The notes under the pieces were generated by a model that saw nothing but the letters and a program-made list of their open reading frames with translations, did no database searches and had not been told where the DNA came from. Below are positions 2-10,199 of a DNA stretch of 10,199 bases, one piece after another. The translations under genes were made by a program, and so were the position numbers. The DNA is from Candidatus Iainarchaeum sp. (GTDB lineage Archaea; Iainarchaeota; Iainarchaeia; Iainarchaeales; CSSED10-239), in contig JAQVRT010000025.1 of NCBI GenBank assembly GCA_028700905.1, forward strand, positions 1-10,199, written 5' to 3'. Positions within the stretch are counted from its first letter, which is position 1. Every line of letters starts with the position of its first letter.

Positions 2-1078
2 AAATTAACTGAAACAAAAGAGCATGTAGATAAAGAGCTTTCAAGCCTTTCTTTAAACCTAAATAATTCTTTAGAAAAAATAAAAGAAAAAGAAGAACAA
101 TTAAATCTTTTAAAAATAAAAGAAAAAACTTTGGAAAAAAATTCCTTAATTGAAAAGCAAATTGAACAATTAAATAAACTTCTTTTAGAAAATACTTCTT
201 TAAAAGAAAAGTCCCTAACTGAAATTAATTCTCTAGATAAAATAGAAGATCTCTCATCTTTAGAAAAAGAAATTTTAAAAGAAAAAGAAACCCTTTCTCT
301 TAAAAAAGAACTTTTAAAAATTTCTGAAAAAATAAAAGAAGTTTCTGAAAAATTAGTCTTACAAAAAGAAGAACTTTCAAAAATAAACTTTTCTCAAGAA
401 GAATATCTAAATCTTTTAACAGATTATAAAGCTTTAGAAAATAATTTTATGCAAATAAAAGAATCCTTAACAAACTATAAATCCTTAAAAGAAACTTTAA
501 AAAAGCAATTAGAAAACCTAACCTCTCTTTCAAAACAAAAAGAAGAAGTTAATCTTTCTTTTACAAAAATAAATAGAAAAAAACAAGATCTTTCTTATTT
601 TTTAAAAGCCATTGATAATAGTCAACTGCAGTTAAGAAAAGTTTTAATAGATAACATAAATCAAGCTCTTTCAATCATCTGGCCAAAAGTATATCCTTAC
701 AAAGATTATTTGTCAGCAAGATTAAATGCAGATAACGATTATATCTTAGAAGTTTTAACTTTAAAAAATAACTGGATAAGGGTTGAAGGTTTATTAAGTG
801 GAGGAGAAAGGGCTTGTGCTTCTCTTTCCATAAGGATTGCAATTTCTTTAATCTTAACTAAAAAATTAGGTCTTTTAATTCTTGATGAACCTACACATAA
901 TTTAGATGAAAAATCAATAGAGGCTTTATCAAATGTTTTAGAAGAAGAGCTTCCTGACCTTGTAGAACAAATATTTATTGTAACTCATGATAACAAGCTT
1001 CTTGAAACTGTTAATGCAACTAAGTTTATAATTGAGAGAGATAAAGAAAACGATTCTGCTTCAAAAGTTAATTTTTAA
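2..1078 (+). CDS. rad50: Rad50 DNA double-strand break repair ATPase, C-terminal part (5'-partial; the reading frame is open from position 2, so the TTG at 131 in the ORF track is not the real start)
   Basis: The frame is open from the window edge. A long K/E/L-rich heptad-like coiled-coil region is followed by the C-terminal ABC ATPase lobe. That lobe has the signature motif LSGGE (794-808), Walker B LLILDE (872-889), D-loop PTHNLD and H-loop VTHD. It stops at TAA 1076-1078. No CxxC zinc hook is visible, so it is presumably upstream of the window. Confidence 0.9.
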   Translation, partial: KLTETKEHVDKELSSLSLNLNNSLEKIKEKEEQLNLLKIKEKTLEKNSLIEKQIEQLNKLLLENTSLKEKSLTEINSLDKIEDLSSLEKEILKEKETLSLKKELLKISEKIKEVSEKLVLQKEELSKINFSQEEYLNLLTDYKALENNFMQIKESLTNYKSLKETLKKQLENLTSLSKQKEEVNLSFTKINRKKQDLSYFLKAIDNSQLQLRKVLIDNINQALSIIWPKVYPYKDYLSARLNADNDYILEVLTLKNNWIRVEGLLSGGERACASLSIRIAISLILTKKLGLLILDEPTHNLDEKSIEALSNVLEEELPDLVEQIFIVTHDNKLLETVNATKFIIERDKENDSASKVNF

Positions 1079-1101
1079 AGATTTTATTAAAAATAACCTC
1101 A

Positions 1102-1109
1102 TTTTTAAA
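1102..1109 (+). promoter_or_regulatory. Candidate archaeal TATA box for a leaderless priS transcript
   Basis: TTTTTAAA is centred about 27 nt upstream of the priS ATG (1132), and no Shine-Dalgarno motif lies in the 53-nt gap. Caveat: TATA-like strings are frequent in DNA this AT-rich. Confidence 0.3.
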
Positions 1110-1131
1110 CATTTTTATCTATATATTATTT

Positions 1132-2382
1132 ATGTCTTATATCCCTGATTTTCATAAGATTAAATACTTTACAGAAAAGTTTAAAGAATACTATCAAAAT
1201 AATTATATCTCTTGTATATTGGATGTTTCAAAAAGAGAGTTTGGGATAGGAACTATACAATCTAAAATTAGTCAAAGACATTTATCTTTTGTATCTTTAG
1301 AAGATTTTAATAATTATTTAAGAATTACTCCTCCTTTTTATGTTTCTTATTCAACTAGTTATTTTAAATATCCAGATAGAAGACCAATGGATAATAAAAT
1401 ATGGGAAGGTTCAGACATTGTCTATGAGTTTGATTCTGATGATTATGATCTGCCATGCCATGATAGACATAATACCTGGCAATGTACAAGTGAAGAATGT
1501 AATGAATGGGGTTATGGAAACTTAGTAGAATGCCCTAAATGTTTTTCAAAAACCAAGATTACAGAATGGACTTGTGATGAATGTTTAGGAAAAGCAAAAG
1601 AAGATACCTTAAGATTAGTTGATTTTTTAGAAAAAGAATTTAAATTAAATCCAGCAAGCTTTATTATTAGTTTTTCAGGTGCTAAAGGGTATCATGTAAG
1701 AATAACTGATAGAACAATAATTTCTTTATCTAAACCTGCAAGACTACAGATGATGAACTATATTTTAGCAAATGATTTAGAGCTTGAAAAATTAGGTTTT
1801 ATAAAACAGAAAAAACTTTGGAAAATACCGCCTGTAAAAGAAGCAGCTGGATGGTCTAAAAAAATTATAATGGGTATTATTGATGTGTTTTCTTATGATG
1901 AAAAAAAGCTTATTAATTTATTTGGACTTTCTCCAAAAAAAGCAAAACTTTTAAAGGATACAAAAGAAGATATTTTAAATAAGATGTATCATAATAATAT
2001 ATTAGTTGCTGATTTTTCTTCAAGTGATAAATTTTTTGAAGATGTTATAAATCATGTAATAAATAAAACAAGACTTAAAATAGACCCTCAATCATCTTCA
2101 GATATTTTTAAGATAATGAGGGTTCCAGATACTATTCATGGTGGTACTGGTTTTTTATCTACATATATTAAGACAAAAGAAGATTTAATAAATTTTGATC
2201 CTTTTAAAGATCCTGTTGTTTTAGGTAACATGGATTTAAAAAAAATAAAATTATTAAAACCAACACCTAAATTTAGAATAATTGACCAATATTATGGTCC
2301 TTATAATAAAGATGAGGTTTTAAAACTTCCAGAAAAAGTATCAATGTTTTTAGTTCTTAAAGGGGTGGCAAATTTTGAGTGA
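1132..2382 (+). CDS. priS: DNA primase small (catalytic) subunit PriS
   Basis: Archaeo-eukaryotic primase motifs are present: catalytic acidic motif YEFDSDD (DSD at 1432-1440), a Cys/His zinc-knuckle region (1456-1584), SFSGAKGYHVRI, and RVPDTIHGGTGF. The length of 416 aa is plausible for PriS with its helical insertion domain. Confidence 0.93.
   Translation: MSYIPDFHKIKYFTEKFKEYYQNNYISCILDVSKREFGIGTIQSKISQRHLSFVSLEDFNNYLRITPPFYVSYSTSYFKYPDRRPMDNKIWEGSDIVYEFDSDDYDLPCHDRHNTWQCTSEECNEWGYGNLVECPKCFSKTKITEWTCDECLGKAKEDTLRLVDFLEKEFKLNPASFIISFSGAKGYHVRITDRTIISLSKPARLQMMNYILANDLELEKLGFIKQKKLWKIPPVKEAAGWSKKIIMGIIDVFSYDEKKLINLFGLSPKKAKLLKDTKEDILNKMYHNNILVADFSSSDKFFEDVINHVINKTRLKIDPQSSSDIFKIMRVPDTIHGGTGFLSTYIKTKEDLINFDPFKDPVVLGNMDLKKIKLLKPTPKFRIIDQYYGPYNKDEVLKLPEKVSMFLVLKGVANFE
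2362..2368 (+). promoter_or_regulatory. Shine-Dalgarno-like motif (GGGGTGG) for the GINS gene
   Basis: It matches the GGTG core complementary to the archaeal 16S 3' end and lies 6 nt upstream of the TTG start at 2375, inside the 3' end of priS. Confidence 0.45.
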
Positions 2383-2941
2383 AGATTATAGTTTAGATTA
2401 CGATGAATTAAGAAAAATTTATAGACTTGAAACAAAGTCTCCCAAACTTACAAAATTAAATACTGATTTTTATAAGGAGCTTAAAAAATTTCTTTCAGAT
2501 GAAAGAAAAAAATATACTTCAGAGATTGAAGAGTCTTTTTCTCATGCAACTATAAAAAAGTTTGAAACTTTAAAAAAAATGGTTGAAAAAATAAGAGAAA
2601 TAAGAATGAAAAAATGTCTTAACCTTTGTTTAATGTATAGTAGAACAAATGATTTTGAAGAAGAAGGTTTAATTGATTTTGAAATTGATTTTGCAAAAGG
2701 TGTGATTAAATTAATTGATAAACAAACAGAATTTTCTCAAAATATTTTTGGAGTTTCTAAAAAGACTAAAAAGATTGAAAATCAAAATCTTTGTAAAGTA
2801 AAATTTTTAGAAGAAGTTCCTACATTTATAGGTGCTGATTTAAAGGAATATGGTCCTTTTGAAAAAGAACAGGTTTGTGAGATTCCTGAAGATATGATTA
2901 AAATATTAGAATCAAAAAATCTTATTAAAAAAATAGATTAA
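2375..2941 (+). CDS. gins51: GINS complex subunit, Gins51 (Gins15) type
   Basis: It overlaps the priS stop by 8 nt (TTG start). The N-terminal half is helical with the typical L..L...E......L..L...FY..L..FL pattern. The small C-terminal domain KVKFLEEVPTFIGADLKEYGPFEKEQVCEIPEDMIKILESKNLI resembles the Gins51 B-domain. The A-then-B domain order and the ~188-aa size fit Gins51, and the priS-gins15 gene pair is a known conserved archaeal linkage. The call rests on remembered motif patterns, not a computed alignment. Confidence 0.7.
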   Translation: MSEDYSLDYDELRKIYRLETKSPKLTKLNTDFYKELKKFLSDERKKYTSEIEESFSHATIKKFETLKKMVEKIREIRMKKCLNLCLMYSRTNDFEEEGLIDFEIDFAKGVIKLIDKQTEFSQNIFGVSKKTKKIENQNLCKVKFLEEVPTFIGADLKEYGPFEKEQVCEIPEDMIKILESKNLIKKID

Positions 2942-2958
2942 AAAAGAGTTGATAATTA

Positions 2959-3723
2959 ATGGTTGATTTTCCAAATATAAACGATGTTGTAATTTGTAAA
3001 GTTACAAAAATAACTGATTTTGGTGTTTTTGCAGAGCTTTTAGAGTATGATAATATGGAAGGTTTTGTACACATTTCACAAATTTCATCTACTTGGATTA
3101 AAAACATTCATAATCATGTAAAACAAAATCAAATAAGAGCTGCTAAAGTTTTAAAAGTTGATGAAGAAAAAAAACATATTGATATATCTTTCAGTAGAAT
3201 TACAGATGCTGATGAAAAAAGAAAAATTTCTGAATATAGATTATTTTTAAGAGCTCAAAGTCTTTTAGGGGTAATAGCTCAAGAGATTGGAGAATCACAA
3301 GAAAAAATTTGGGAAGAAGTTGCAGATCCAATTATTGAAGAAGAAAATTCTTTATATAAAGGATTTTTAAATATTTTAAAGCATGGAGGAGATTATTATT
3401 CTCAAATTGATCCTAAATATCATAAAGTTTTATTTGAGATTTTAGATAAAAATATTACTTTAAAAGACAAAGATATTTTAGGGATAATGACAATTACTTC
3501 AAGTAATTCTAGTGGTTTTGAAAATATTAAAAAAGTACTTTCTGAGGTAACAGATAAATATCCTGACTGTAGAATACTTTATTTAGGCCCTGGTAAATAT
3601 GAACTTAAAGTAACTTCTAAAGAATTTAAAACTTCTGCAAAAAAATTTGATTTAATTGTGGATGAAATTTCTAAAGGATTAAAAAAACATGCTTCTTTTG
3701 AAGTTGTTAAAAAAGATTCTTAA
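2959..3723 (+). CDS. eif2a: Translation initiation factor aIF2 alpha subunit
   Basis: The N-terminal S1/OB domain reads FPNINDVVICKVTKITDFGVFAELLEYDNMEGFVHISQISSTWIKNIHNHVKQNQIRAAKVLKVDEEKKHIDISFSRI. It is followed by the helical and alpha-beta C-terminal domains. The 254-aa length is typical. Confidence 0.93.
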   Translation: MVDFPNINDVVICKVTKITDFGVFAELLEYDNMEGFVHISQISSTWIKNIHNHVKQNQIRAAKVLKVDEEKKHIDISFSRITDADEKRKISEYRLFLRAQSLLGVIAQEIGESQEKIWEEVADPIIEEENSLYKGFLNILKHGGDYYSQIDPKYHKVLFEILDKNITLKDKDILGIMTITSSNSSGFENIKKVLSEVTDKYPDCRILYLGPGKYELKVTSKEFKTSAKKFDLIVDEISKGLKKHASFEVVKKDS

Positions 3724-3736
3724 ATGTTTATATAAA

Positions 3737-3741
3737 GGTGA
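3737..3741 (+). promoter_or_regulatory. Shine-Dalgarno motif GGTGA for the PAC2-family gene
   Basis: GGTGA lies 8 nt upstream of ATG 3750. The GTG start at 3738 in the ORF track lies inside this motif, which argues for the ATG. A TTTATATA string at 3727-3734 is also present but is only ~20 nt from the ATG. Confidence 0.5.
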
Positions 3742-3749
3742 GTTGTAAT

Positions 3750-4556
3750 ATGGTTACTGAAATAAAATTAATTAAAAATATAAAAACTTTAAAAAATCCA
3801 GTTCTTTTTGTAGGGCTTCCTGGAATCGGTTTAGTTGGAAAAATATCTGTGGATTATTTAATTAAAGAATTATCTCCAAAACCAACATTGATTGGAAAAA
3901 TATTTTCTGATTCTTTTCCTCCTGCAGTTCATGAAAAGAATTCTGTTTTAGAACTTATCTATGATGAAATTTATTTATATAAAACAAAAACAAAAGATTT
4001 TTTATTCATCGCAGGCCCAGTTCAACCTCCTTTAACAAATACAATTAATAGCGATCAACATTATGAATTTTCAGAAAAAATTGCATTATTTGCAAAAAAG
4101 CATAAAATTAAAGAGATATATACTTTTGCAGGTCTTAATATAGGGGATAAAAGAATAACTTCTAAACCAAAAGTTATTTGTGTATCTACAGACTTAAAAA
4201 CTAAAGAAAATATTTTAAAAAAGAAAATTTCAAACCTTCATTTTCAAGATAAAGGACAAGATGCTTTAATCTCTGGAGTTGCAGGTTTACTATTAGGTAT
4301 TTCTTATGAGTCTTATAAAATCCCTGGTTGTTGTTTAATGGGAGAGACAAATAGTAAATTAACCTATGGAGACCCTTCTTCTGCAAAACAAGTTTTAGAA
4401 GTTGTTGATTCTATATTTAAATTAAAAATTAATTTAAAAAAGATAGATGAAAGTGCAAAAAAGATAGAAAAATCTTTTAGTGAAATTTCTAAAAATCTAG
4501 AGGAAATTTCTCAAAAGCAAGAAGGTCCGTCAACTCAATCTAACTATATAAGATAA
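3750..4556 (+). CDS. PAC2-family proteasome assembly chaperone (archaeal PbaA/PbaB-like; formerly 'ATP-grasp superfamily' COG1938/COG2047)
   Basis: It carries the characteristic N-terminal motif LFVGLPGIGLVGKISVDYLIKEL, has a typical ~270-aa length, and ends in an acidic/K-rich helical tail. ATG 3750 is preferred over GTG 3738 because of the Shine-Dalgarno spacing. Confidence 0.85.
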   Translation: MVTEIKLIKNIKTLKNPVLFVGLPGIGLVGKISVDYLIKELSPKPTLIGKIFSDSFPPAVHEKNSVLELIYDEIYLYKTKTKDFLFIAGPVQPPLTNTINSDQHYEFSEKIALFAKKHKIKEIYTFAGLNIGDKRITSKPKVICVSTDLKTKENILKKKISNLHFQDKGQDALISGVAGLLLGISYESYKIPGCCLMGETNSKLTYGDPSSAKQVLEVVDSIFKLKINLKKIDESAKKIEKSFSEISKNLEEISQKQEGPSTQSNYIR

Positions 4557-4564
4557 TTTTTAAT

Positions 4565-4569
4565 GGTGA
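4565..4569 (+). promoter_or_regulatory. Shine-Dalgarno motif GGTGA for herA
   Basis: GGTGA lies 9 nt upstream of ATG 4579 in a 22-nt intergenic gap. Confidence 0.5.
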
Positions 4570-4578
4570 AAAATAAAT

Positions 4579-6126
4579 ATGGTCTTTAAAGAAAATGAAC
4601 TTGGAATTGTTGTTTCAACAATGGATTCTCCTTCAACTTCAAAGATCACTTTTGTGTGTACCAAAAAAGTTTATAAAGGACAATATGTTCAAATAGATTA
4701 TTCTCAAGGTAGTTTAATTGGGCTTGTAACAGATGTATCTTCTCAAAATAGGTATTTTGAAAATAATGAGTCTGTAAAAGAATTTGAAAGTTCTGATTAT
4801 AATATCAATGATCAATTTCCAACAAGTGATTGGGAATTTTTACTTGCAAATATAAAGCCTTTAGGAGTTCTTTCAAAAGAAAATTTTTTTGTAAGATCAA
4901 CACTTCCAGTATCTCCTGGATCTAAAGTTTCAATTTGTGAAAAAGAAGTTTTATTTAAATTTCTTCATTTAAAAAAGAACGGGCTTAATCTTGGACAAAT
5001 TGAATTCCCTACTCTTCCTGTTACTTTTTGTATGGATAGACTTTTACAAAAACATTTAGCAATTTTAGCACAATCTGGGGCAGGAAAAAGTTATTTAACT
5101 TCTGTTGTTTTAGAAGAACTTTTAGACAGAACTAAAGAAGATGGTCAAGTTGCAGTTTTATTATTTGATGTTCATGGAGAGTATTCTCATTTTTCACATC
5201 CAGTAAAAGATTCTTCTGAATATAAAGATTATTCTTCAAAGACAATAAAGATTAATTCTTTTGAAATAAAGATTGGTGTTTCTACTCTCTCTTTAAATTT
5301 CTTTTCTTCTCTTTTACCGTCTCTTAGTTCTGCACAAAAACGTGAACTTGGAAGTGTTTTAAAAAAATTAACTGAAGATAAAAAAAATGGTTTAGGTCCT
5401 TTTGATCTAAAAGACATTATTAAAGAAATAGAAAGACAAGAAGTTAAAGAAAATGTTTCAAAACCTTTAATTAATGCTTTAGGTGAACTTTTAGATTATA
5501 ATCTTTTTGCAAAAATTGATTCTCCTTCAATTTTTGATATTGTAAAACCTGGAAAATTAACAATTATTGATTTATCCAGAGAAATAAATCTTAAAAAGAA
5601 ACAATTAATACTTTATTATTTTGCACATAAACTTTTTTATTCAAGAACCAATCCTTCTTTAAATGTACCTCCATTTCTTTTAGTTGTTGAAGAAGCTCAT
5701 CAATTTGCTCCTGAAAGTGCAAGTAAAGATAGAGCTATGGCAAAATCAATCTTAGAGACTATTGCAAGAGAAGGGCGAAAGTTTGGATCTTGTCTTTGTT
5801 TAATTTCTCAAAGACCAGTTAAATTATCTACAACTGTTCTTTCACAAGCAAATACCCATATAATTTTAAGAATAACTAATCCTTATGACTTAAAGCATAT
5901 AGGAGAATCATCTGAAGGACTTGATTCTAAATCTGTAGAAATGATAAGTTCTTTAAGAGTTGGAGAAGCATTAGTTGTTGGTGAAGCTTCATCTTATCCT
6001 GTGTTTTTTAAAGTTAGAAAAAAATATTCTCAAGATTCTCATTTAGATGTTTCTCTTTCAGGTCTTGCTAAAAATTATTTAAAAAATTCTTCTAATCAAG
6101 ATAAAGATATTGAAGGTTTTTTATAG
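4579..6126 (+). CDS. herA: HerA-type hexameric DNA helicase/translocase (FtsK-HerA superfamily, DUF87)
   Basis: The N-terminal HAS-barrel-like segment is GIVVSTMDSPSTSKITFVCTKKVYKGQYVQIDYSQGSLIGLVTDV. Walker A is AQSGAGKS (5068-5091), Walker B is LLVVEEAHQFAP, and the conserved REGRKFG...LISQRP region is present. The 515-aa length is typical of archaeal HerA. It stops at TAG. Confidence 0.85.
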   Translation: MVFKENELGIVVSTMDSPSTSKITFVCTKKVYKGQYVQIDYSQGSLIGLVTDVSSQNRYFENNESVKEFESSDYNINDQFPTSDWEFLLANIKPLGVLSKENFFVRSTLPVSPGSKVSICEKEVLFKFLHLKKNGLNLGQIEFPTLPVTFCMDRLLQKHLAILAQSGAGKSYLTSVVLEELLDRTKEDGQVAVLLFDVHGEYSHFSHPVKDSSEYKDYSSKTIKINSFEIKIGVSTLSLNFFSSLLPSLSSAQKRELGSVLKKLTEDKKNGLGPFDLKDIIKEIERQEVKENVSKPLINALGELLDYNLFAKIDSPSIFDIVKPGKLTIIDLSREINLKKKQLILYYFAHKLFYSRTNPSLNVPPFLLVVEEAHQFAPESASKDRAMAKSILETIAREGRKFGSCLCLISQRPVKLSTTVLSQANTHIILRITNPYDLKHIGESSEGLDSKSVEMISSLRVGEALVVGEASSYPVFFKVRKKYSQDSHLDVSLSGLAKNYLKNSSNQDKDIEGFL

Positions 6127-6134
6127 CAAAGATG

Positions 6135-6145
6135 TTTTTATATAT
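6135..6145 (+). promoter_or_regulatory. Candidate TATA box for a leaderless phosphoribosyltransferase transcript
   Basis: TTTTTATATAT (core TTTATATA at 6137-6144) is centred ~28 nt upstream of ATG 6169. The 42-nt gap has no Shine-Dalgarno motif. The same AT-richness caveat applies. Confidence 0.35.
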
Positions 6146-6168
6146 CTTATGATATAATATTATATAGT

Positions 6169-6636
6169 ATGTACAAAGTATCGTGGACAGAGTTTGAAAG
6201 TCTAGCAATTGATCTTACTAAAAAGATTAAATCTTCAAATAAAAACTTTTCATTTATAGTTGGTGTTAGTAGAGGTGGTCTTTTATTATCAAGATTATTA
6301 TCTTCAACTTTAGATCTTCCAATGGGCGTTATTGCTGCAAAACATGTTGATGGAGTTTACCACGTTGATAATTATATTTCAACAATATATGATGTTGAAG
6401 GAGATATTCTTTTAGTTGATGATGTAATGGACCAAGCTTCTGTTAATGTAATTTCAAAAATTAATAAAAATTATAAAAATATAAATTCTATAACTTCGGC
6501 ATGTGTTTTTTATAAAGGTAAAGAAAAAAGTTTTAAACCAGATTTTTTTACAAGTAAAGTTGATGAATTTATAACCATTGTTTTTCCTTATCAAGAGAAA
6601 ACAATTTTAAAAAATTTTGAAAACTCTGAGGATTAA
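6169..6636 (+). CDS. Type I phosphoribosyltransferase, Gpt/purine-PRT-like
   Basis: It follows the E. coli Gpt-like layout: VSWTEFESLA...IVGVSRGGLLLSRLL, then the hydrophobic-DD PRPP motif ILLVDDVMD, then a C-terminal D.FI..VFPYQ. The 155-aa size fits the small Gpt family. The loop after the DD motif is atypical (see findings). Confidence 0.75.
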   Translation: MYKVSWTEFESLAIDLTKKIKSSNKNFSFIVGVSRGGLLLSRLLSSTLDLPMGVIAAKHVDGVYHVDNYISTIYDVEGDILLVDDVMDQASVNVISKINKNYKNINSITSACVFYKGKEKSFKPDFFTSKVDEFITIVFPYQEKTILKNFENSED

Positions 6637-6644
6637 GATAATTT

Positions 6645-7097
6645 ATGAAAAAAAAAGTATCAAATAAACAAAATTTAATAATAGCTTTATTAATTATTCT
6701 AATTATTTTAGTAATATTTTTTATTGCTATATTTTCTGCAAATATTTTATATAGTAATATAAAAGAAAATAATATAGATTATAACTTGACAATTTCACAA
6801 CTTGATCAAAATTCAGATGTTGTTGTAAATATGGGTAATGATGTTAATTTTTCTGAATTAAATGAATTTACTTTACCTGAAAGTGAACTTGTTAATGAAT
6901 ATTTAATCTCAAGTGAAAATATTTCAAATTTAAAAAATATATATTCTTTTTTATTTGATGAAGCCTTAGTTTCTTCTTATGGTTATCTTCAAACTGAAGA
7001 AGGCGATTATATTTTAGAATATAAAGATTATATTTTAGTTTTTAATAAAGATGAAAATCAAACTAAAAGTATTTGGAGAGTACAAAATTTAGAATAA
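6645..7097 (+). CDS. Hypothetical membrane-anchored protein (single N-terminal TM helix)
   Basis: The ORF starts 8 nt after the preceding stop. Its basic N-terminus MKKKVSNKQ is followed by a ~23-residue hydrophobic helix LIIALLIILIILVIFFIAIFSA, then an acidic N/S/E-rich ~110-aa domain. I recognise no family. Confidence 0.6.
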   Translation: MKKKVSNKQNLIIALLIILIILVIFFIAIFSANILYSNIKENNIDYNLTISQLDQNSDVVVNMGNDVNFSELNEFTLPESELVNEYLISSENISNLKNIYSFLFDEALVSSYGYLQTEEGDYILEYKDYILVFNKDENQTKSIWRVQNLE

Positions 7098-7113
7098 TTT
7101 TAATTTTTTAAAA

Positions 7114-9663
7114 ATGTGTTTTTTTATGGATGATGCAAATTTAATGCTTTTAAAAAAAAAAGTAAAAGCTATAAAACAATATAAAGGTCAAGGGACTCAG
7201 CTTATAAGTCTTTATCTTCCACCTGATGCAGATAGAAGCTCTGCAACTAAACAATTAACTGATGAAATGAGTCAATCTTCAAATATTAAGAGTGCTCAAA
7301 CCAGAAAAAATGTTCAAGCTGCTTTAAAAAGAATTATAAATTATCTAAAACAAATTGATTTTAAACTTCCAGAAACAGGTTTAGTATTATTTTCAGGAGA
7401 TGTTTCAACTAACCCTTCTAAATCAGATGTAATTTTACTTGCAATTGTTCCACCAGTAAGACTTACAACTAAACTTTATTGGTGTGATTCAACTTTTCAT
7501 ATTGCTCCTTTAGAAGATATGGCTCAAACAGATGATGTTTATGGCCTTGTTGTAATGGATAAACGAGAAGCAACAGTTGCAATTTTAAGAGGTAAATCTA
7601 AAGAAATTTTATTTAGTGAAAGTTCAAATGTTCCTGGTAAAACAAAAGCCGGAGGGCAATGTTTAAAAGAGGCTTTTATTTCTCTTTCTAATGGAGATTT
7701 AATAGATATTTCTAATATTTCTTCCAAAACTTCTTTAACTTCTGTTAATTTTAATAAAGATAAAATAGTTAATTCAAAAATTACAAAAAAATGGTCAGTT
7801 ACAAAAAACAAAACTTACATTATTAAAACCAAAGCTCCTGGTATGGAAATTAAAGCAAGTGAAGACCATATTTTTTTTGTCTTAACACCAGATGGAATTA
7901 TTCAAAAAATTTCAAAAGAATTAACTTTAAAAGATTATTTATTATTTCCTGAAAAATTATCTTATAAAAATAAATCTTATTCTTTCAATACTAAAAAGTA
8001 TATATCTAAACTAAATAAACCTTCTATTAAAATACCTTCAAAACTAGATAATAACTTTTCTCAGTTTTTAGGTTATCTTTTAGGTGATGGTTCTATTGAA
8101 ACTGATAGATTAACTTTTTATGAATCTAGAAAAGATGTTATTTTAGAGTATAAAAAGTTATTTGATAAATATTTTAATATAAATTCTTCTTTAACTTTTA
8201 GAGATTCTAAAAATTATTATCAATTAAGGGTAACTTCAACTGCTCTTGTAAGATTAATTAAAGAAGAGTTTAAGGAAATTAAAAAAGCAAGAGATTCTTT
8301 AATCCCTTCTAAAATATTAACTTCTTCAGATAAAGTTTTATCTTATTTTTTAAAAGGTCTTTATGATGCTGAAGGATATGTTAATTTTTCTAAAAAATCA
8401 ATAGATATTGGAATTAATAATAAACAACTTGCTTTACAAATACAGCTTGTTCTTTTTAGATTTTCAATTATTGGCTCTCTTCAAGAGTATGATAATAAAC
8501 AAAATCCATATACTGATAACCATCGTTTTGTAATTTCAATTTCAGATAAAGAATCATTAGCTTCTTTTGAAAAAAATATTAATTTTACATCTCTTGAAAA
8601 ACAAAAAAAGATTAAAGCTTTTCAAAAAATAAAAACAAAAAAAAGTTTTTCAAGAACTCTTCCTGTATATGGAAGAAAGGTAAGGGAAGTTATTCAATCA
8701 CATGGCTATAACTTAGAACTTTTTCCAAAGGTAAGTAGTTTTTTTAATAATAACAGGATGATTAGTAAATCAGTATTTAAAACATCTATTTTAGATTATG
8801 TTAAAGATAAATCTCTTTTAAAAGATTTAAATAAATTTTATATTATGCCTTATTTTTGTGCAAAAATAAATTCAATAAATATTGAAAATAAAAAAACCAC
8901 AATGACAGATATTTCTGTTATAAACAAATCTTTTATTGCAAATGGTTTAATTGTTCATAATTCTGCACATCGTTTTGAAAGATTAAGAGATAAGTATGAA
9001 GAAGAATTTTATAAAAGAGTAGGTGAAAAAGTAAATACTGCTTTTGTAAATCTTGAAAATTTTAAAGGTATGATTGTTGGTGGTCCTGGGCTTACTAAAA
9101 ATGAATTTTTAGAGATAGGAGATTTAGATCATAGAATTAAAGATAAAATTTTAGGAACTGTTGATACTTCTTACACAGATGAATCAGGTATAAAAGAAAT
9201 TCTAGATAAATCTGAAGATATTTTAAAAGAAACTGGTTTAGTTCATGAAAGAAAACTAATTAATAAATTTTTTGAAAATTTAGCAAAAACAGGTCTTGCA
9301 AATTATGGTTTTCAAGATGTAATTGATGCCTTAAATATAGGTAAAGCTTCAACTGTTTTAGTTTCAGAAGGATTAGAGTGGACTGTTTTAATTTTTAAAT
9401 GTTTATCAGATAAATCTAGATTTATTAAAATTGTTAAAAATAAAGATGAAGTTTCAGATGCAATTTCTAAATTTGAAAATTCACAAGATGATTGTATGCA
9501 AGGAAAAGCAGAGCTTGTTGAAGAAGTTGATATTTATGATTATTTTATTGATATTTCTAAAAATACAAGTGCAAAGGTAGAACTTATATCTGTTGAAACT
9601 TTGGAAGGAAAACAATTTTTTGAAACTTTTGGAGGGCTTGCAGCTTTCTTAAGATATAGATAA
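7114..9663 (+). CDS. prf1: Archaeal peptide chain release factor aRF1, intein-containing precursor (182-aa N-extein + 434-aa intein + 233-aa C-extein)
   Basis: The exteins carry all aRF1 hallmarks. These are GQGTQLISLYLPP, the NIKS stop-codon recognition motif (7282-7293), YxCxxxF (YWCDSTF), GGQ (7651-7659) continuing after the insert as SAHRFERLR, then GGPGLTKNEF and the C-terminal domain. The spliced length of 415 aa is typical. An alternative start at ATG 7126 (MDDANL...) is equally plausible. Confidence 0.95.
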   Translation: MCFFMDDANLMLLKKKVKAIKQYKGQGTQLISLYLPPDADRSSATKQLTDEMSQSSNIKSAQTRKNVQAALKRIINYLKQIDFKLPETGLVLFSGDVSTNPSKSDVILLAIVPPVRLTTKLYWCDSTFHIAPLEDMAQTDDVYGLVVMDKREATVAILRGKSKEILFSESSNVPGKTKAGGQCLKEAFISLSNGDLIDISNISSKTSLTSVNFNKDKIVNSKITKKWSVTKNKTYIIKTKAPGMEIKASEDHIFFVLTPDGIIQKISKELTLKDYLLFPEKLSYKNKSYSFNTKKYISKLNKPSIKIPSKLDNNFSQFLGYLLGDGSIETDRLTFYESRKDVILEYKKLFDKYFNINSSLTFRDSKNYYQLRVTSTALVRLIKEEFKEIKKARDSLIPSKILTSSDKVLSYFLKGLYDAEGYVNFSKKSIDIGINNKQLALQIQLVLFRFSIIGSLQEYDNKQNPYTDNHRFVISISDKESLASFEKNINFTSLEKQKKIKAFQKIKTKKSFSRTLPVYGRKVREVIQSHGYNLELFPKVSSFFNNNRMISKSVFKTSILDYVKDKSLLKDLNKFYIMPYFCAKINSINIENKKTTMTDISVINKSFIANGLIVHNSAHRFERLRDKYEEEFYKRVGEKVNTAFVNLENFKGMIVGGPGLTKNEFLEIGDLDHRIKDKILGTVDTSYTDESGIKEILDKSEDILKETGLVHERKLINKFFENLAKTGLANYGFQDVIDALNIGKASTVLVSEGLEWTVLIFKCLSDKSRFIKIVKNKDEVSDAISKFENSQDDCMQGKAELVEEVDIYDYFIDISKNTSAKVELISVETLEGKQFFETFGGLAAFLRYR
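7660..8961 (+). mobile_element. Full-length class-1 intein with LAGLIDADG homing endonuclease, inserted after the Gln of the aRF1 GGQ motif
   Basis: Block A is CLKEAFISLSNGD (Cys1 at 7660-7662) and block B is GMEIKASEDHIFFV. LAGLIDADG motif 1 is FLGYLLGDGSI (8065-8097). A block D-like RDSLIPSKI follows. LAGLIDADG motif 2 is FLKGLYDAEGYV (8347-8382), block F is TDISVINKSFIANG, and block G is LIVHN (ends 8961) followed by the +1 Ser (8962-8964). The insert is in frame with no stops, 1302 nt = 434 aa. Confidence 0.9.
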
Positions 9664-9667
9664 GGTG
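9663..9667 (+). promoter_or_regulatory. Shine-Dalgarno-like motif AGGTG for the ORF downstream of aRF1
   Basis: AGGTG overlaps the aRF1 stop codon and lies 7 nt upstream of TTG 9675, suggesting co-transcription and coupling with aRF1. Confidence 0.45.
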
Positions 9668-9674
9668 TTATTTT

Positions 9675-10181
9675 TTGATAAAAACATTAAAAGCAAGAAA
9701 AATTACAAAAACTAATATTGGTTCTAAATTAGGGGTTGTAGATATTCGTAAAAGAATCATAGAAAATAAAACCTATTCTCTTTCCTACACAATAAAAGGT
9801 AAGTCTTTAGAGCTTAATTTTTTAATAAAATATAAAAAATCTAATCTTAGTGATTTTAAAAAAATTTATTCTGATCTTTTAAATATTGCAAAAGAAAAAA
9901 AAATTAAAAAAATATATACTTCTTCATGGGTATTTTCTGAAACAAAAGGTTTATCTGAAAGACTTGGCTTTAAGCTTGTTAAAGGAACTGATAAAAAACT
10001 AAACTTAATTAAAGAAAAATATCCTGATTATAAAATTATTGGTATTGAACAAAGATTTTCTACAGATCCAAGAAATTATGGTTTAACTCCTTGTTTAGTT
10101 TTAGAAAATAAATCTTTGAAAAAAGAAGTTGTAATTAATATGGATAAAAATATGCTTCCAATATATGTAAAGGAACTTTAA
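9675..10181 (+). CDS. Hypothetical protein (168 aa, basic, K-rich)
   Basis: The ORF has a Shine-Dalgarno-supported TTG start 11 nt after the aRF1 stop, and its codon usage looks like its neighbours. I recognise no family. A segment KKIYTSSWVFSETKGLSERLGFKLV faintly recalls the C-terminal part of GNAT folds, but no acetyl-CoA motif (Q/RxxGxG/A) is visible. Confidence 0.55.
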   Translation: MIKTLKARKITKTNIGSKLGVVDIRKRIIENKTYSLSYTIKGKSLELNFLIKYKKSNLSDFKKIYSDLLNIAKEKKIKKIYTSSWVFSETKGLSERLGFKLVKGTDKKLNLIKEKYPDYKIIGIEQRFSTDPRNYGLTPCLVLENKSLKKEVVINMDKNMLPIYVKEL

Positions 10182-10199
10182 ATTATGGATTATAGATAT

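Follow-up and report, generated by a model that had tools for sequence, protein, structure and literature searches.

A probable class-1 intein with a nested LAGLIDADG homing endonuclease in the GGQ loop of the release factor aRF1 of a DPANN archaeon

The aRF1 locus and its insert

The window, i.e., the whole 10,199-nt contig analysed here, comes from a Candidatus Iainarchaeum MAG and carries, in this order, genes for HerA and a PRTase, an unknown ORF, the gene for the archaeal release factor aRF1 and a 168-aa ORF. The same gene order is found in contig L001 of a close relative. The aRF1 gene is the sole release-factor gene visible on the contig. Its ORF (positions 7114–9663, forward strand, as are all features of the gene given below) opens at ATG 7114 and encodes 849 aa. 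The true N-terminus of the protein is probably M5 of this ORF, since both the NCBI protein and the relatives start at ATG 7126. The precursor gene counted from this probable start (7126–9663, with the stop codon at 9661–9663) encodes 845 aa, and the product is identical to NCBI MDD4049939.1. When the window was scanned for RNA features no Rfam family and no tRNA was found, and an antisense ORF of 90 aa (7539–7811) was rejected as spurious because it lies on the opposite strand of the conserved aRF1/intein junction.

Pfam searches with the 849-aa ORF recovered eRF1_1, eRF1_2 (in two stretches) and eRF1_3. The N-extein (7126–7659) comprises domain N of aRF1 and the beginning of domain M, including the NIKS (7282–7293) and YxCxxxF (7477–7497) motifs, and ends with the GGQ motif (7651–7659). 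The C-extein (8962–9660) begins with the +1 Ser (8962–8964), which is the S of GGQS, and comprises the rest of domain M and domain C. In-silico removal of the 434-aa insert between them (7660–8961) yields a protein of 415 aa (411 aa from ATG 7126), which aligns without a gap through VPGKTKAGGQSAHRFERLR with Halobacterium aRF1 (4af1, 1.5e-78) and with eRF1 structures. The aRF1 equivalog model TIGR03676 (cut-off 234.7 bits) scores the precursor at 413 bits and the spliced product at 444 bits. The three eRF1 domains, the NIKS, YxCxxxF and GGQ motifs and an equivalog-level HMM score are thus all found in the protein, and its exteins are those of an ordinary aRF1 with three domains, like 4af1, Aeropyrum aRF1 (3agk/3vmf) and human eRF1 (1dt9). 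Unlike the aRF1 described here, no solved or characterised aRF1 or eRF1 has an intein. The preliminary description, which was made from the letters of the window, had proposed both this insert and the restored GGQ loop, and the translation and the alignment to the aRF1 structure bear it out.

The insert is flanked by ...NVPGKTKAGGQ on one side and SAHRFERLRDKY... on the other, so that the insertion point is exactly between Q and S of the catalytic GGQS loop. Its translation starts with CLKEAF and ends with LIVHN. Two Pfam families were detected inside it, namely Intein_splicing (PF14890; E 1.3e-16, 61 bits against a cut-off of 35.8) and LAGLIDADG_3 (PF14528; E 2.8e-17, in two stretches). As matches of sequence to profile, both are far beyond chance. 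All the splicing blocks that had been named earlier could be located. Block A (CLKEAFISLSNGD, 7660–7698) contains Cys1 (7660–7662), the presumed nucleophile for the N-S acyl shift, and block B (GMEIKASEDHIFFV, 7840–7881) has the SxxH signature as S67-E-D-H70. Block F (MTDISVINKSFIANG, 8902–8946) carries the conserved Asp417, while block G (LIVHN, 8947–8961) provides the penultimate His433 and the terminal Asn434.

Conservation of these residues was assessed in an alignment of 51 diverse intein-bearing aRF1 precursors (A1). Cys1, the block-B His (H248 in precursor numbering), the block-F Asp (D595), H611, N612 and the +1 Ser are invariant in all 51. Among the homologues, the N-terminal junction is GGQ/C in 117 of 120 and the C-terminal junction is HN/S in 104 of the 106 that were parsed, the other two being false matches within the intein.

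The putative endonuclease module, together with a C-terminal helical region, occupies positions 7975–8856 (intein residues ~106–399). Its limits were taken from an alignment with five mini-inteins (P0096, P0106, P0113, P0117 and P0120), in which this segment is absent. LAGLIDADG motif 1 (block C, FSQFLGYLLGDGSIE, 8056–8100) reads LGYLLGDGS and contains the catalytic Asp143, whereas motif 2 (block E, VLSYFLKGLYDAEGYV, 8335–8382) reads LKGLYDAEGY and contains the catalytic Glu238. Both motifs thus have their catalytic acidic residue. In A1, Asp143 (D321 in precursor numbering) is conserved in at least 90% of the precursors; in motif 2, conservation is complete for D414 and A415 and reaches at least 90% for E416. 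The profile and the fold agree with a LAGLIDADG endonuclease, and the Foldseek matches include I-Tsp061I (2dch).

Taken together, the insert has the residues of blocks A, B and F/G, the +1 Ser, an in-frame removable architecture and a Hint fold. We consider it very probable (roughly 0.92) that a genuine class-1 intein, in which a LAGLIDADG homing endonuclease is nested, lies here in frame and splits the GGQS of aRF1. Two features count against this reading. Block B has Ser at the position where Thr is commoner; Ser is, however, a substitution known in active inteins. The difference in GC content between the intein (21.7%) and the exteins (28.1%) is only modest.

Distribution of the insert and the state of its endonuclease

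The syntenic aRF1 locus of L001, which is 87% identical to the window at the nucleotide level, has an empty site. In blastn alignments L001 positions 2441–3212 correspond to window positions 6882–7660 and L001 positions 3212–4444 to window positions 8962–10199, i.e., the alignment stops exactly at 7660/8962. This intein-free allele fixes the boundaries of the insertion to the nucleotide. Across the junction the vacant site of L001 reads AAAACAAAAGCTGGTGGTCAA followed directly by TCAGCACATCGTTTTGAAAGA.

The preliminary description had suggested a search for aRF1 ORFs longer than 600 aa, and such ORFs with GGQ/C...HN/S junctions turned out to be abundant in DPANN archaea. An intein occupies the GGQ/S site in no fewer than 170 protein clusters, which derive from separate NCBI, JGI, ENA and Logan assemblies, and it is distributed over six DPANN lineages (Iainarchaeota, Woesearchaeota, Nanoarchaeota, Nanohaloarchaea, Micrarchaeota and Aenigmatarchaeota). 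It occurs in full-size, HTH-bearing, degenerate (271 aa) and mini (133–141 aa) forms. In the tree of the exteins, intein-bearing and intein-free alleles are interleaved. As judged from these sequences, the mixture of forms and the interleaved vacant alleles is the pattern of the classic homing cycle.

Substitution rates were compared between the window and three intein-bearing relatives; the values come from the simple Nei-Gojobori method, applied to DNA very rich in AT. The dN/dS ratios were 0.23–0.30 for the N-terminal splicing region of the intein, 0.21–0.23 for the endonuclease core (intein residues 119–330), 0.20–0.38 for intein residues 331–395 and 0.07–0.18 for the exteins. On these estimates both the splicing and the endonuclease parts are under purifying selection. 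Identity of the intein to the three relatives (79, 79 and 74%) does not track that of the extein (96, 85 and 76%).

It is possible, albeit rather unlikely in our view, that splicing is intact and the endonuclease inactive, in which case the intein would be a fixed, vertically inherited passenger and not mobile. Many intein endonucleases are dead despite intact motifs. In addition, a 434-aa intein is kept in all of nine clusters of 75–100% identity, which could reflect vertical inheritance, and IMG/VR contigs scanned with the intein gave no match, so that no relatives were seen on these viral contigs. However, the endonuclease retains its two catalytic acidic residues, which are conserved, and the dN/dS of the endonuclease core is not above that of the N-terminal splicing region. 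Furthermore, two vacant alleles (P0121 and P0122) nest among the intein-bearing P0001–P0008 within a shallow clade of the extein tree, and between the window and L004 the dS of the intein exceeds that of the extein (0.60 vs 0.41). These observations count, if indirectly, against an inactive endonuclease.

Proposed splicing mechanism and relation to known inteins

The mechanism that we propose for the aRF1 intein is ordinary class-1 protein splicing combined with homing, and as such it is wholly conventional. Translation would give the 845-aa precursor, in which a domain of ~50 kDa interrupts the GGQ loop that lies at the domain M tip. With its GGQ loop split by the intein, the precursor should not catalyse peptidyl-tRNA hydrolysis. 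Cys1 would then attack the carbonyl of Gln(-1) in an N-S acyl shift assisted by the block-B His, and in the following trans-esterification the N-extein would pass to Ser+1. Cyclisation of Asn434, assisted by His433, would free the intein, and an O-N shift would produce a native Gln-Ser peptide bond. This would leave a 411-aa aRF1, its GGQS loop intact, and a released intein of 434 aa. On DNA, aRF1 alleles lacking the intein would be cleaved by the endonuclease across the GGQ/S codons, and repair templated by the occupied allele would then insert a copy of the intein.

The AF2 model of the precursor has a mean pLDDT of 87, with most of the intein above 90. In Foldseek searches this model matched 4af1 (5e-26) and the TliVMA intein 7qss (1.5e-24, TMt 0.77), as well as PI-PfuI, PI-TkoII and PI-SceI. 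When the intein sequence was searched against the PDB, the VMA inteins 7qsu/7qss were closest (1e-13), followed by PI-PfuI (4e-9). TliVMA and PhoVMA are inteins of the V-ATPase subunit A of Thermococcales (7qss, 7qsu and 7qst; Beyer et al., 2022; PMC8966425). They are the best matches of the aRF1 intein in structure as well as in sequence, and like it they have Cys1, the terminal HN and a Hint domain into which a LAGLIDADG endonuclease with two motifs is set, whereas sequence identity is only ~17–25%. The hosts also differ, being the catalytic subunit of an ATPase (P-loop region) in the former and a translation factor in the latter, and so do the organisms, hyperthermophilic Euryarchaeota in one case and a DPANN archaeon with 25% GC in the other.

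Similarly, PI-PfuI (the RNR intein of P. furiosus, 1dq3), PI-TkoII (2cw7) and PI-SceI (yeast VMA1, 1vde/1lws) are class-1 inteins with LAGLIDADG endonucleases, and it is from these three that the proposed mechanism is known. Their hosts and insertion sites, however, are different from those of the aRF1 intein. PI-PfuI and PI-SceI have additional DNA-recognition or 'stirrup' regions; residues ~331–399 of the aRF1 intein are helical.

Among archaeal translation factors, EF-2 is an intein host in InBase. Another such host, aIF2/IF-2, appears in the table of the survey by Novikova (2016; PMC4760082). Inteins in aIF2/IF-2 and EF-2 resemble the aRF1 intein in that they interrupt a highly conserved motif of a translation factor that is essential. 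Their sites are P-loop GTPase motifs, whereas the site in aRF1 is the loop for peptidyl-tRNA hydrolysis. The NCBIfam model for intein-containing IF-2 weakly matches the intein part of aRF1.

The location of the intein raises the question of regulation. Conditional protein splicing has been documented for the archaeal RadA intein (PMC5790916, PMC5238726, PMC11409957), and the aRF1 intein might likewise have been co-opted as a post-translational gate, with splicing that depends, for instance, on redox state (via Cys1), temperature or a partner setting the supply of active aRF1 and hence the efficiency of termination. An insertion in the catalytic loop of a factor that is essential and presumably present only once would suit such a role, and the intein has been kept across many DPANN lineages, including as mini-inteins without mobility. 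Nevertheless, the sequence carries nothing specific to regulation, and no second Cys was identified in a position to form a trap disulfide with Cys1. Intein-free alleles are also frequent in sister lineages, which indicates that the intein is dispensable. A regulatory role is improbable.

It is still harder to believe that the aRF1 gene is disrupted or non-functional, as a splicing-dead copy or a pseudogene, and that a second copy elsewhere does the work. With only 10 kb of the genome visible a second copy could exist, but the ORF is intact over 2.5 kb, the splicing residues are all invariant, the extein dN/dS is low (see above) and the gene lies where, by synteny, relatives have their intein-free aRF1. 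Finally, the contig comes from a metagenome assembly and the NCBI name of the protein is just 'LAGLIDADG family homing endonuclease', yet an assembly chimera or gene-calling artefact fusing a free-standing endonuclease gene into aRF1 can be practically dismissed. The in-frame architecture is seen again, with identical junction residues, in more than 170 clusters whose assemblies are independent, and the endonuclease is enclosed by Hint blocks A/B and F/G in the fashion of a true intein.

Novelty, annotation and variants of the GGQ motif

The preliminary description was cautious about novelty, and that caution proved to be justified on both counts. The allele is already present in sequence databases (well over 100 clusters), while no description of an aRF1 or eRF1 intein at GGQ was found among the full-text papers searched. 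Two papers, on Bodo saltans virus and on an Anaeramoeba intein, were checked and turned out to be irrelevant. The main text of the Novikova survey (2016; PMC4760082) has no release factor among the intein hosts. What appears to be new here is the host protein and the insertion site, whereas the allele itself is common in public DPANN metagenomes. A class-I release factor, occupied at the GGQ loop that acts in the peptidyl-transferase centre, would thereby join the intein hosts, and the termination machinery is not among the known targets. GGQ is among the most conserved tripeptides in biology, in keeping with the view that homing endonucleases persist because the sequences they target are ones that the host is unable to mutate. 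Since vacant, full, HTH-augmented, degenerate and mini forms exist at one site, and with them all stages of homing, the locus offers a favourable natural setting in which to study intein dynamics in uncultured archaea with reduced genomes. The mini-inteins of 133–141 aa with a Ser+1 junction could, in addition, serve as tools.

Annotation of these genes deserves attention. The NCBI pipeline calls them 'LAGLIDADG family homing endonuclease' or 'helix-turn-helix domain-containing protein', and because of this aRF1 can seem to be missing from DPANN MAG annotations. The JGI pipeline names some members 'eRF1/intein/homing endonuclease'. Un-spliced aRF1 sequences can also distort marker-gene alignments.

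A separate observation concerns the residue preceding the intein. In 15 related intein-bearing precursor clusters the -1 residue is Trp, Met, Phe or Ser, and five of the 15 were placed in Aenigmatarchaeota via near-identical GTDB loci. A different insertion site was considered for homologues lacking 'GGQC', and BLAST placed the intein at the same site with another -1 residue. The aRF1 of a large clade of Aenigmatarchaeota has GGW, or else GGM or GGF, where the 'universal' GGQ would stand, and this is more surprising than the finding of the intein itself. GGW is fixed in a large clade of Aenigmatarchaeota that is free of the intein. No description of GGW aRF1 was found in the full-text literature on GGQ/GGW with aRF1 or Aenigmarchaeota. 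If the GGW protein is truly the sole release factor of its genomes, the assumption that the catalytic Gln is universal would be called into question.

One may speculate, with little confidence, that long occupation of the GGQ/S site has shaped the release factor itself, through selection on the -1 residue for splicing or through escape from the endonuclease, and that in the lineage of the window the rate of splicing gates the supply of active release factor.

Three other accounts of the GGW-type alleles were considered. For the alleles with GGX/C...HN/SQ junctions, where X is Trp, Phe or Met, an intein starting one residue earlier and replacement of the lost Gln by Q+2 were both rejected, as the lengths match canonical aRF1 position for position and as GGW alleles free of the intein exist, some of which have no Q at +2. 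Finally, a GGW paralogue residing beside a GGQ copy is not supported by the scanned sequences of 26 GTDB genomes, which gave one match per genome. The GGW loci L029 and L031 moreover have an upstream aaRS gene in common with GGQ loci, which likewise counts against a paralogue.

An intein in the catalytic loop of aRF1

The ORF at 7114-9663 on the plus strand of the window, a complete metagenomic contig of 10,199 bp with a GC content of 25%, encodes 849 aa, and its second Met (ATG at 7126, 845 aa) is the start found in homologues and in the NCBI record of the precursor, MDD4049939.1 (7126-9663). Nucleotides 7660-8961 translate to 434 aa (CLKEAF...LIVHN) flanked by ...NVPGKTKAGGQ and SAHRFERLRDKY.... 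Pfam searches recognized eRF1_1, eRF1_2 (split) and eRF1_3 in the ORF and, as expected for an intein, both Intein_splicing (E 1.3e-16) and LAGLIDADG_3 (E 2.8e-17) inside the 434-aa segment. The preliminary description had placed an intein in the GGQ motif of aRF1, and ORF translation and Pfam bore out all of its coordinates, lengths and motifs. The product spliced in silico was likewise found to be a contiguous aRF1: its whole length can be aligned with Halobacterium aRF1 (4af1, E 1.5e-78) as well as with eukaryotic eRF1s, and the junction is gap-free (vpgktkaggqsahrferlr opposite VPGKQRKGGQSAQRFARLR of 4af1). On TIGR03676, the NCBI aRF1 equivalog (cut-off 235), the spliced product scored 444 bits and the precursor 413 bits.

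The 434-aa segment alone is closest to the homing-endonuclease-associated VMA inteins 7qsu/7qss (1e-13), and PI-PfuI was also matched (4e-9). It comprises block A (Cys1), block B (S67xxH70), two LAGLIDADG motifs (LGYLLGDGS with Asp143 and LKGLYDAEGY with Glu238), block F (MTDISVINKSFIANG) and block G (LIVHN), and is followed by Ser at +1. An alignment of 51 sequences shows no variation at Cys1, the block-B His, the block-F Asp, His-Asn or Ser+1, and conservation of at least 90% at both acidic residues of the endonuclease. The precursor was modelled with AlphaFold2 from 51 homologues; the model had a mean pLDDT of 87, with the intein mostly above 90 and values below 50 only at residues 173-176, directly before GGQ. 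Foldseek matched this model to aRF1/eRF1 (4af1, 5e-26) and to inteins (TliVMA, 1.5e-24, TMt 0.77; also PI-PfuI, PI-TkoII and PI-SceI). In architecture and chemistry the aRF1 insert is a textbook intein; its presence at GGQ|S is confirmed, and its interpretation as an intein of conventional mechanism is supported.

Searches with the spliced sequence retrieved intein-free aRF1s of 92, 87, 81, 79, 78 and 75% identity (P0121-P0126). The contig encoding P0121, L001, is syntenic with the window, the common order being HerA-like ATPase, phosphoribosyltransferase, small unknown ORF, aRF1 and 168-aa ORF. In blastn, L001 2441-3212 corresponds to window 6882-7660 and L001 3212-4444 to window 8962-10199; the window therefore carries a precise 1302-bp insertion, the boundaries of which are exactly those first read from the sequence. 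Compared with the vacant site of L001 (AAAACAAAAGCTGGTGGTCAA|TCAGCACATCGTTTTGAAAGA), the occupied flanks show synonymous differences only.

The full-text literature search found no mention of an intein in aRF1 or eRF1. An archaeal survey names aIF2 among the translation-related intein hosts and reports few inteins in core transcription and translation proteins (PMC4760082). As far as the literature search goes, both the host and the insertion site are new, and the allele, though visible in databases, is apparently undescribed.

Distribution, and proposed homing and splicing

The insertion recurs in further aRF1 ORFs: the precursor search returned 123 clusters at 90% identity, and nearly all of the best 120 of these were aRF1 with an intein, GGQ|C being found in 117 and HN|S at 104 parsed C-junctions. 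An exhaustive HMMER search of 1.8 billion representatives with the intein only gave 61 matches at E <=1e-30, again nearly all in aRF1 at GGQ|S; weaker matches were proteins of 1000-2400 aa, presumably other intein hosts. By source name, the carriers belong to Iainarchaeota/Diapherotrites, Woesearchaeota, Nanoarchaeota, Nanohaloarchaea/Nanohalobium and Micrarchaeota, to which a GTDB scan added Aenigmatarchaeota. Two proteins (P0310, 1187 aa; P0313, 1452 aa) have two inteins each, one at GGQ|S and one interrupting YxCxxxF, the motif that recognizes stop codons (...TYLYM|C(intein)...FLVHN|CDDHYH...), where the +1 nucleophile is the motif's own Cys.

The inteins fall into several size classes. Those of 419-439 aa include that of the window, which is without HTH_3, and those of 493-510 aa have an extra HTH_3 domain (XRE-type, PF01381) of about 72 aa after the N-terminal Hint lobe and ahead of the first LAGLIDADG motif, an unusual domain addition because of which several precursors are named 'helix-turn-helix domain-containing protein' by NCBI. 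Outside the clade of the window, most of the inteins in aRF1 are of this HTH_3 kind (P0010-P0013, P0016, P0020-P0067 and others). GGQ|S is also occupied by an intein of 271 aa whose endonuclease has decayed (P0023) and by mini-inteins of 133-141 aa (P0096, P0106, P0113-P0120); all of them have intact blocks A, B, F and G and have lost the endonuclease in part or entirely. Such alleles represent the homing cycle at a late stage and could be of use in engineering as compact inteins with Ser at +1. When the exteins are placed in a neighbour-joining tree, intein-bearing and intein-free alleles are intermixed down to shallow nodes. Against three intein-bearing relatives (L004, L006 and L007), dN/dS was 0.21-0.23 in the endonuclease core and 0.07-0.18 in the exteins, and intein identity (79, 79 and 74%) does not track extein identity (96, 85 and 76%). 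A dead insertion fits the distribution, tree and dN/dS poorly; taken together, size classes, interleaved tree, dN/dS and identities point to a homing cycle that is active now or was so recently.

The analysis established the identity of the domains, the catalytic residues, the exact limits of the insert, the existence of vacant alleles and the selective constraint, and the class-1 intein pathway is established for PI-SceI, PI-PfuI and VMA inteins. By this pathway, an N-S acyl shift at Cys1 would be followed by trans-esterification onto Ser+1, cyclisation of Asn434 and an O-N shift remaking Gln-Ser, yielding an aRF1 of 411 aa plus the endonuclease in free form, whose cut in vacant alleles would run across the codons for GGQ|S. 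The precursor should be inactive, because the tip of the GGQ loop carries an insert of about 50 kDa, yet the loop must reach the peptidyl-transferase centre. If the window's aRF1 is the sole copy, splicing would be obligatory. Conditional splicing with a regulatory role is possible and has a precedent in archaeal RadA inteins (PMC5790916, PMC11409957); none of the present findings supports it specifically.

Release factors without the catalytic Gln

In 15 intein-bearing representatives (P0258, P0270, P0272, P0273, P0280-P0282, P0284, P0289, P0293-P0296, P0110 and P0111) a residue other than Gln stands at -1, the junction being KGG[W/F/M/S]|C...HN|SQxRY; NIKS was present in 11/15 and YxCxxxF in all 15. 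At the sequence level, this shows that varied -1 residues can be tolerated by the intein. F, W, M and S are each one nucleotide step from the Leu codon TTG, an adjacency that hints at a GGL intermediate before GG[FWMS].

The GTDB scan with P0272 gave one aRF1 hit in each of 26 Aenigmatarchaeota genomes: 13 have GGQ (three with the intein) and 13 have GGW or GGM, two with the intein and 11 intein-free (GGW at L015-L023 and L031, GGM at L029). GGW together with the intein was seen at L008, L010 and L011. In a large Aenigmatarchaeota clade GGW, rarely GGM or GGF, replaces GGQ (e.g. VPGKTDKGGWSQARYARIRE). The intein-free GGW gene of L016 lies on a 1.1-Mb contig; its protein scored 474 bits on TIGR03676, and 119 of its 120 closest clusters, down to 58% identity (P0398-P0517), have GGW. 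Among 13 inspected GTDB loci, YxCxxxF was found in all and NIKS in 12. Since an upstream class-I aminoacyl-tRNA-synthetase gene is common to L029, L031 and the GGQ-type loci, L029 and L031 appear positionally orthologous and look like orthologues rather than paralogues of GGQ-type aRF1. With one hit per genome, the GGW protein is apparently the only aRF1 of these genomes. The catalytic Gln is regarded as universally conserved, and a conserved Trp in its place in a sole aRF1 would be remarkable. No paper on a GGW aRF1 was found in the full-text search, and these release factors merit separate study.

Annotation and gene neighbourhood

The precursor bears the NCBI title 'MAG: LAGLIDADG family homing endonuclease [Candidatus ainarchaeum sp.]', although it passes the aRF1 equivalog cut-off, and given such names aRF1 may seem missing from DPANN MAG annotations. 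The NCBIfam intein-containing 'exception' models matching the precursor were GyrA and Tes, with none for aRF1, which is probably why the PGAP names mislead. The JGI pipeline names some members 'peptide subunit release factor 1 (eRF1)/intein/homing endonuclease'. A 90-aa antisense ORF across the aRF1/intein N-junction (7539-7811, minus strand) is in all likelihood spurious, the AT-rich strand opposite conserved coding sequence simply having an open frame there.

Replication, repair and translation genes are clustered on one strand at 131-6636: the C-terminal part of a Rad50/SMC-like ATPase (131-1078), the primase small subunit PriS (1132-2382), the C-terminus of which weakly matches Gins51_C, a GINS51-like protein (2375-2941, overlapping PriS by 8 nt), aIF2-alpha (2959-3723), a PAC2-family protein (3738-4556), a HerA-like ATPase (4579-6126) and a phosphoribosyltransferase (6169-6636). 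From PriS on, this order is kept in L004 and L005. The ORFs on either side of aRF1 had no Pfam match; that at 6645-7097 (150 aa) has a hydrophobic N-terminal segment, and that at 9675-10181 (168 aa) has a conserved counterpart at this position in L001, L004 and L005. In L002, L006 and L007, TruD directly follows aRF1 instead of the 168-aa ORF.
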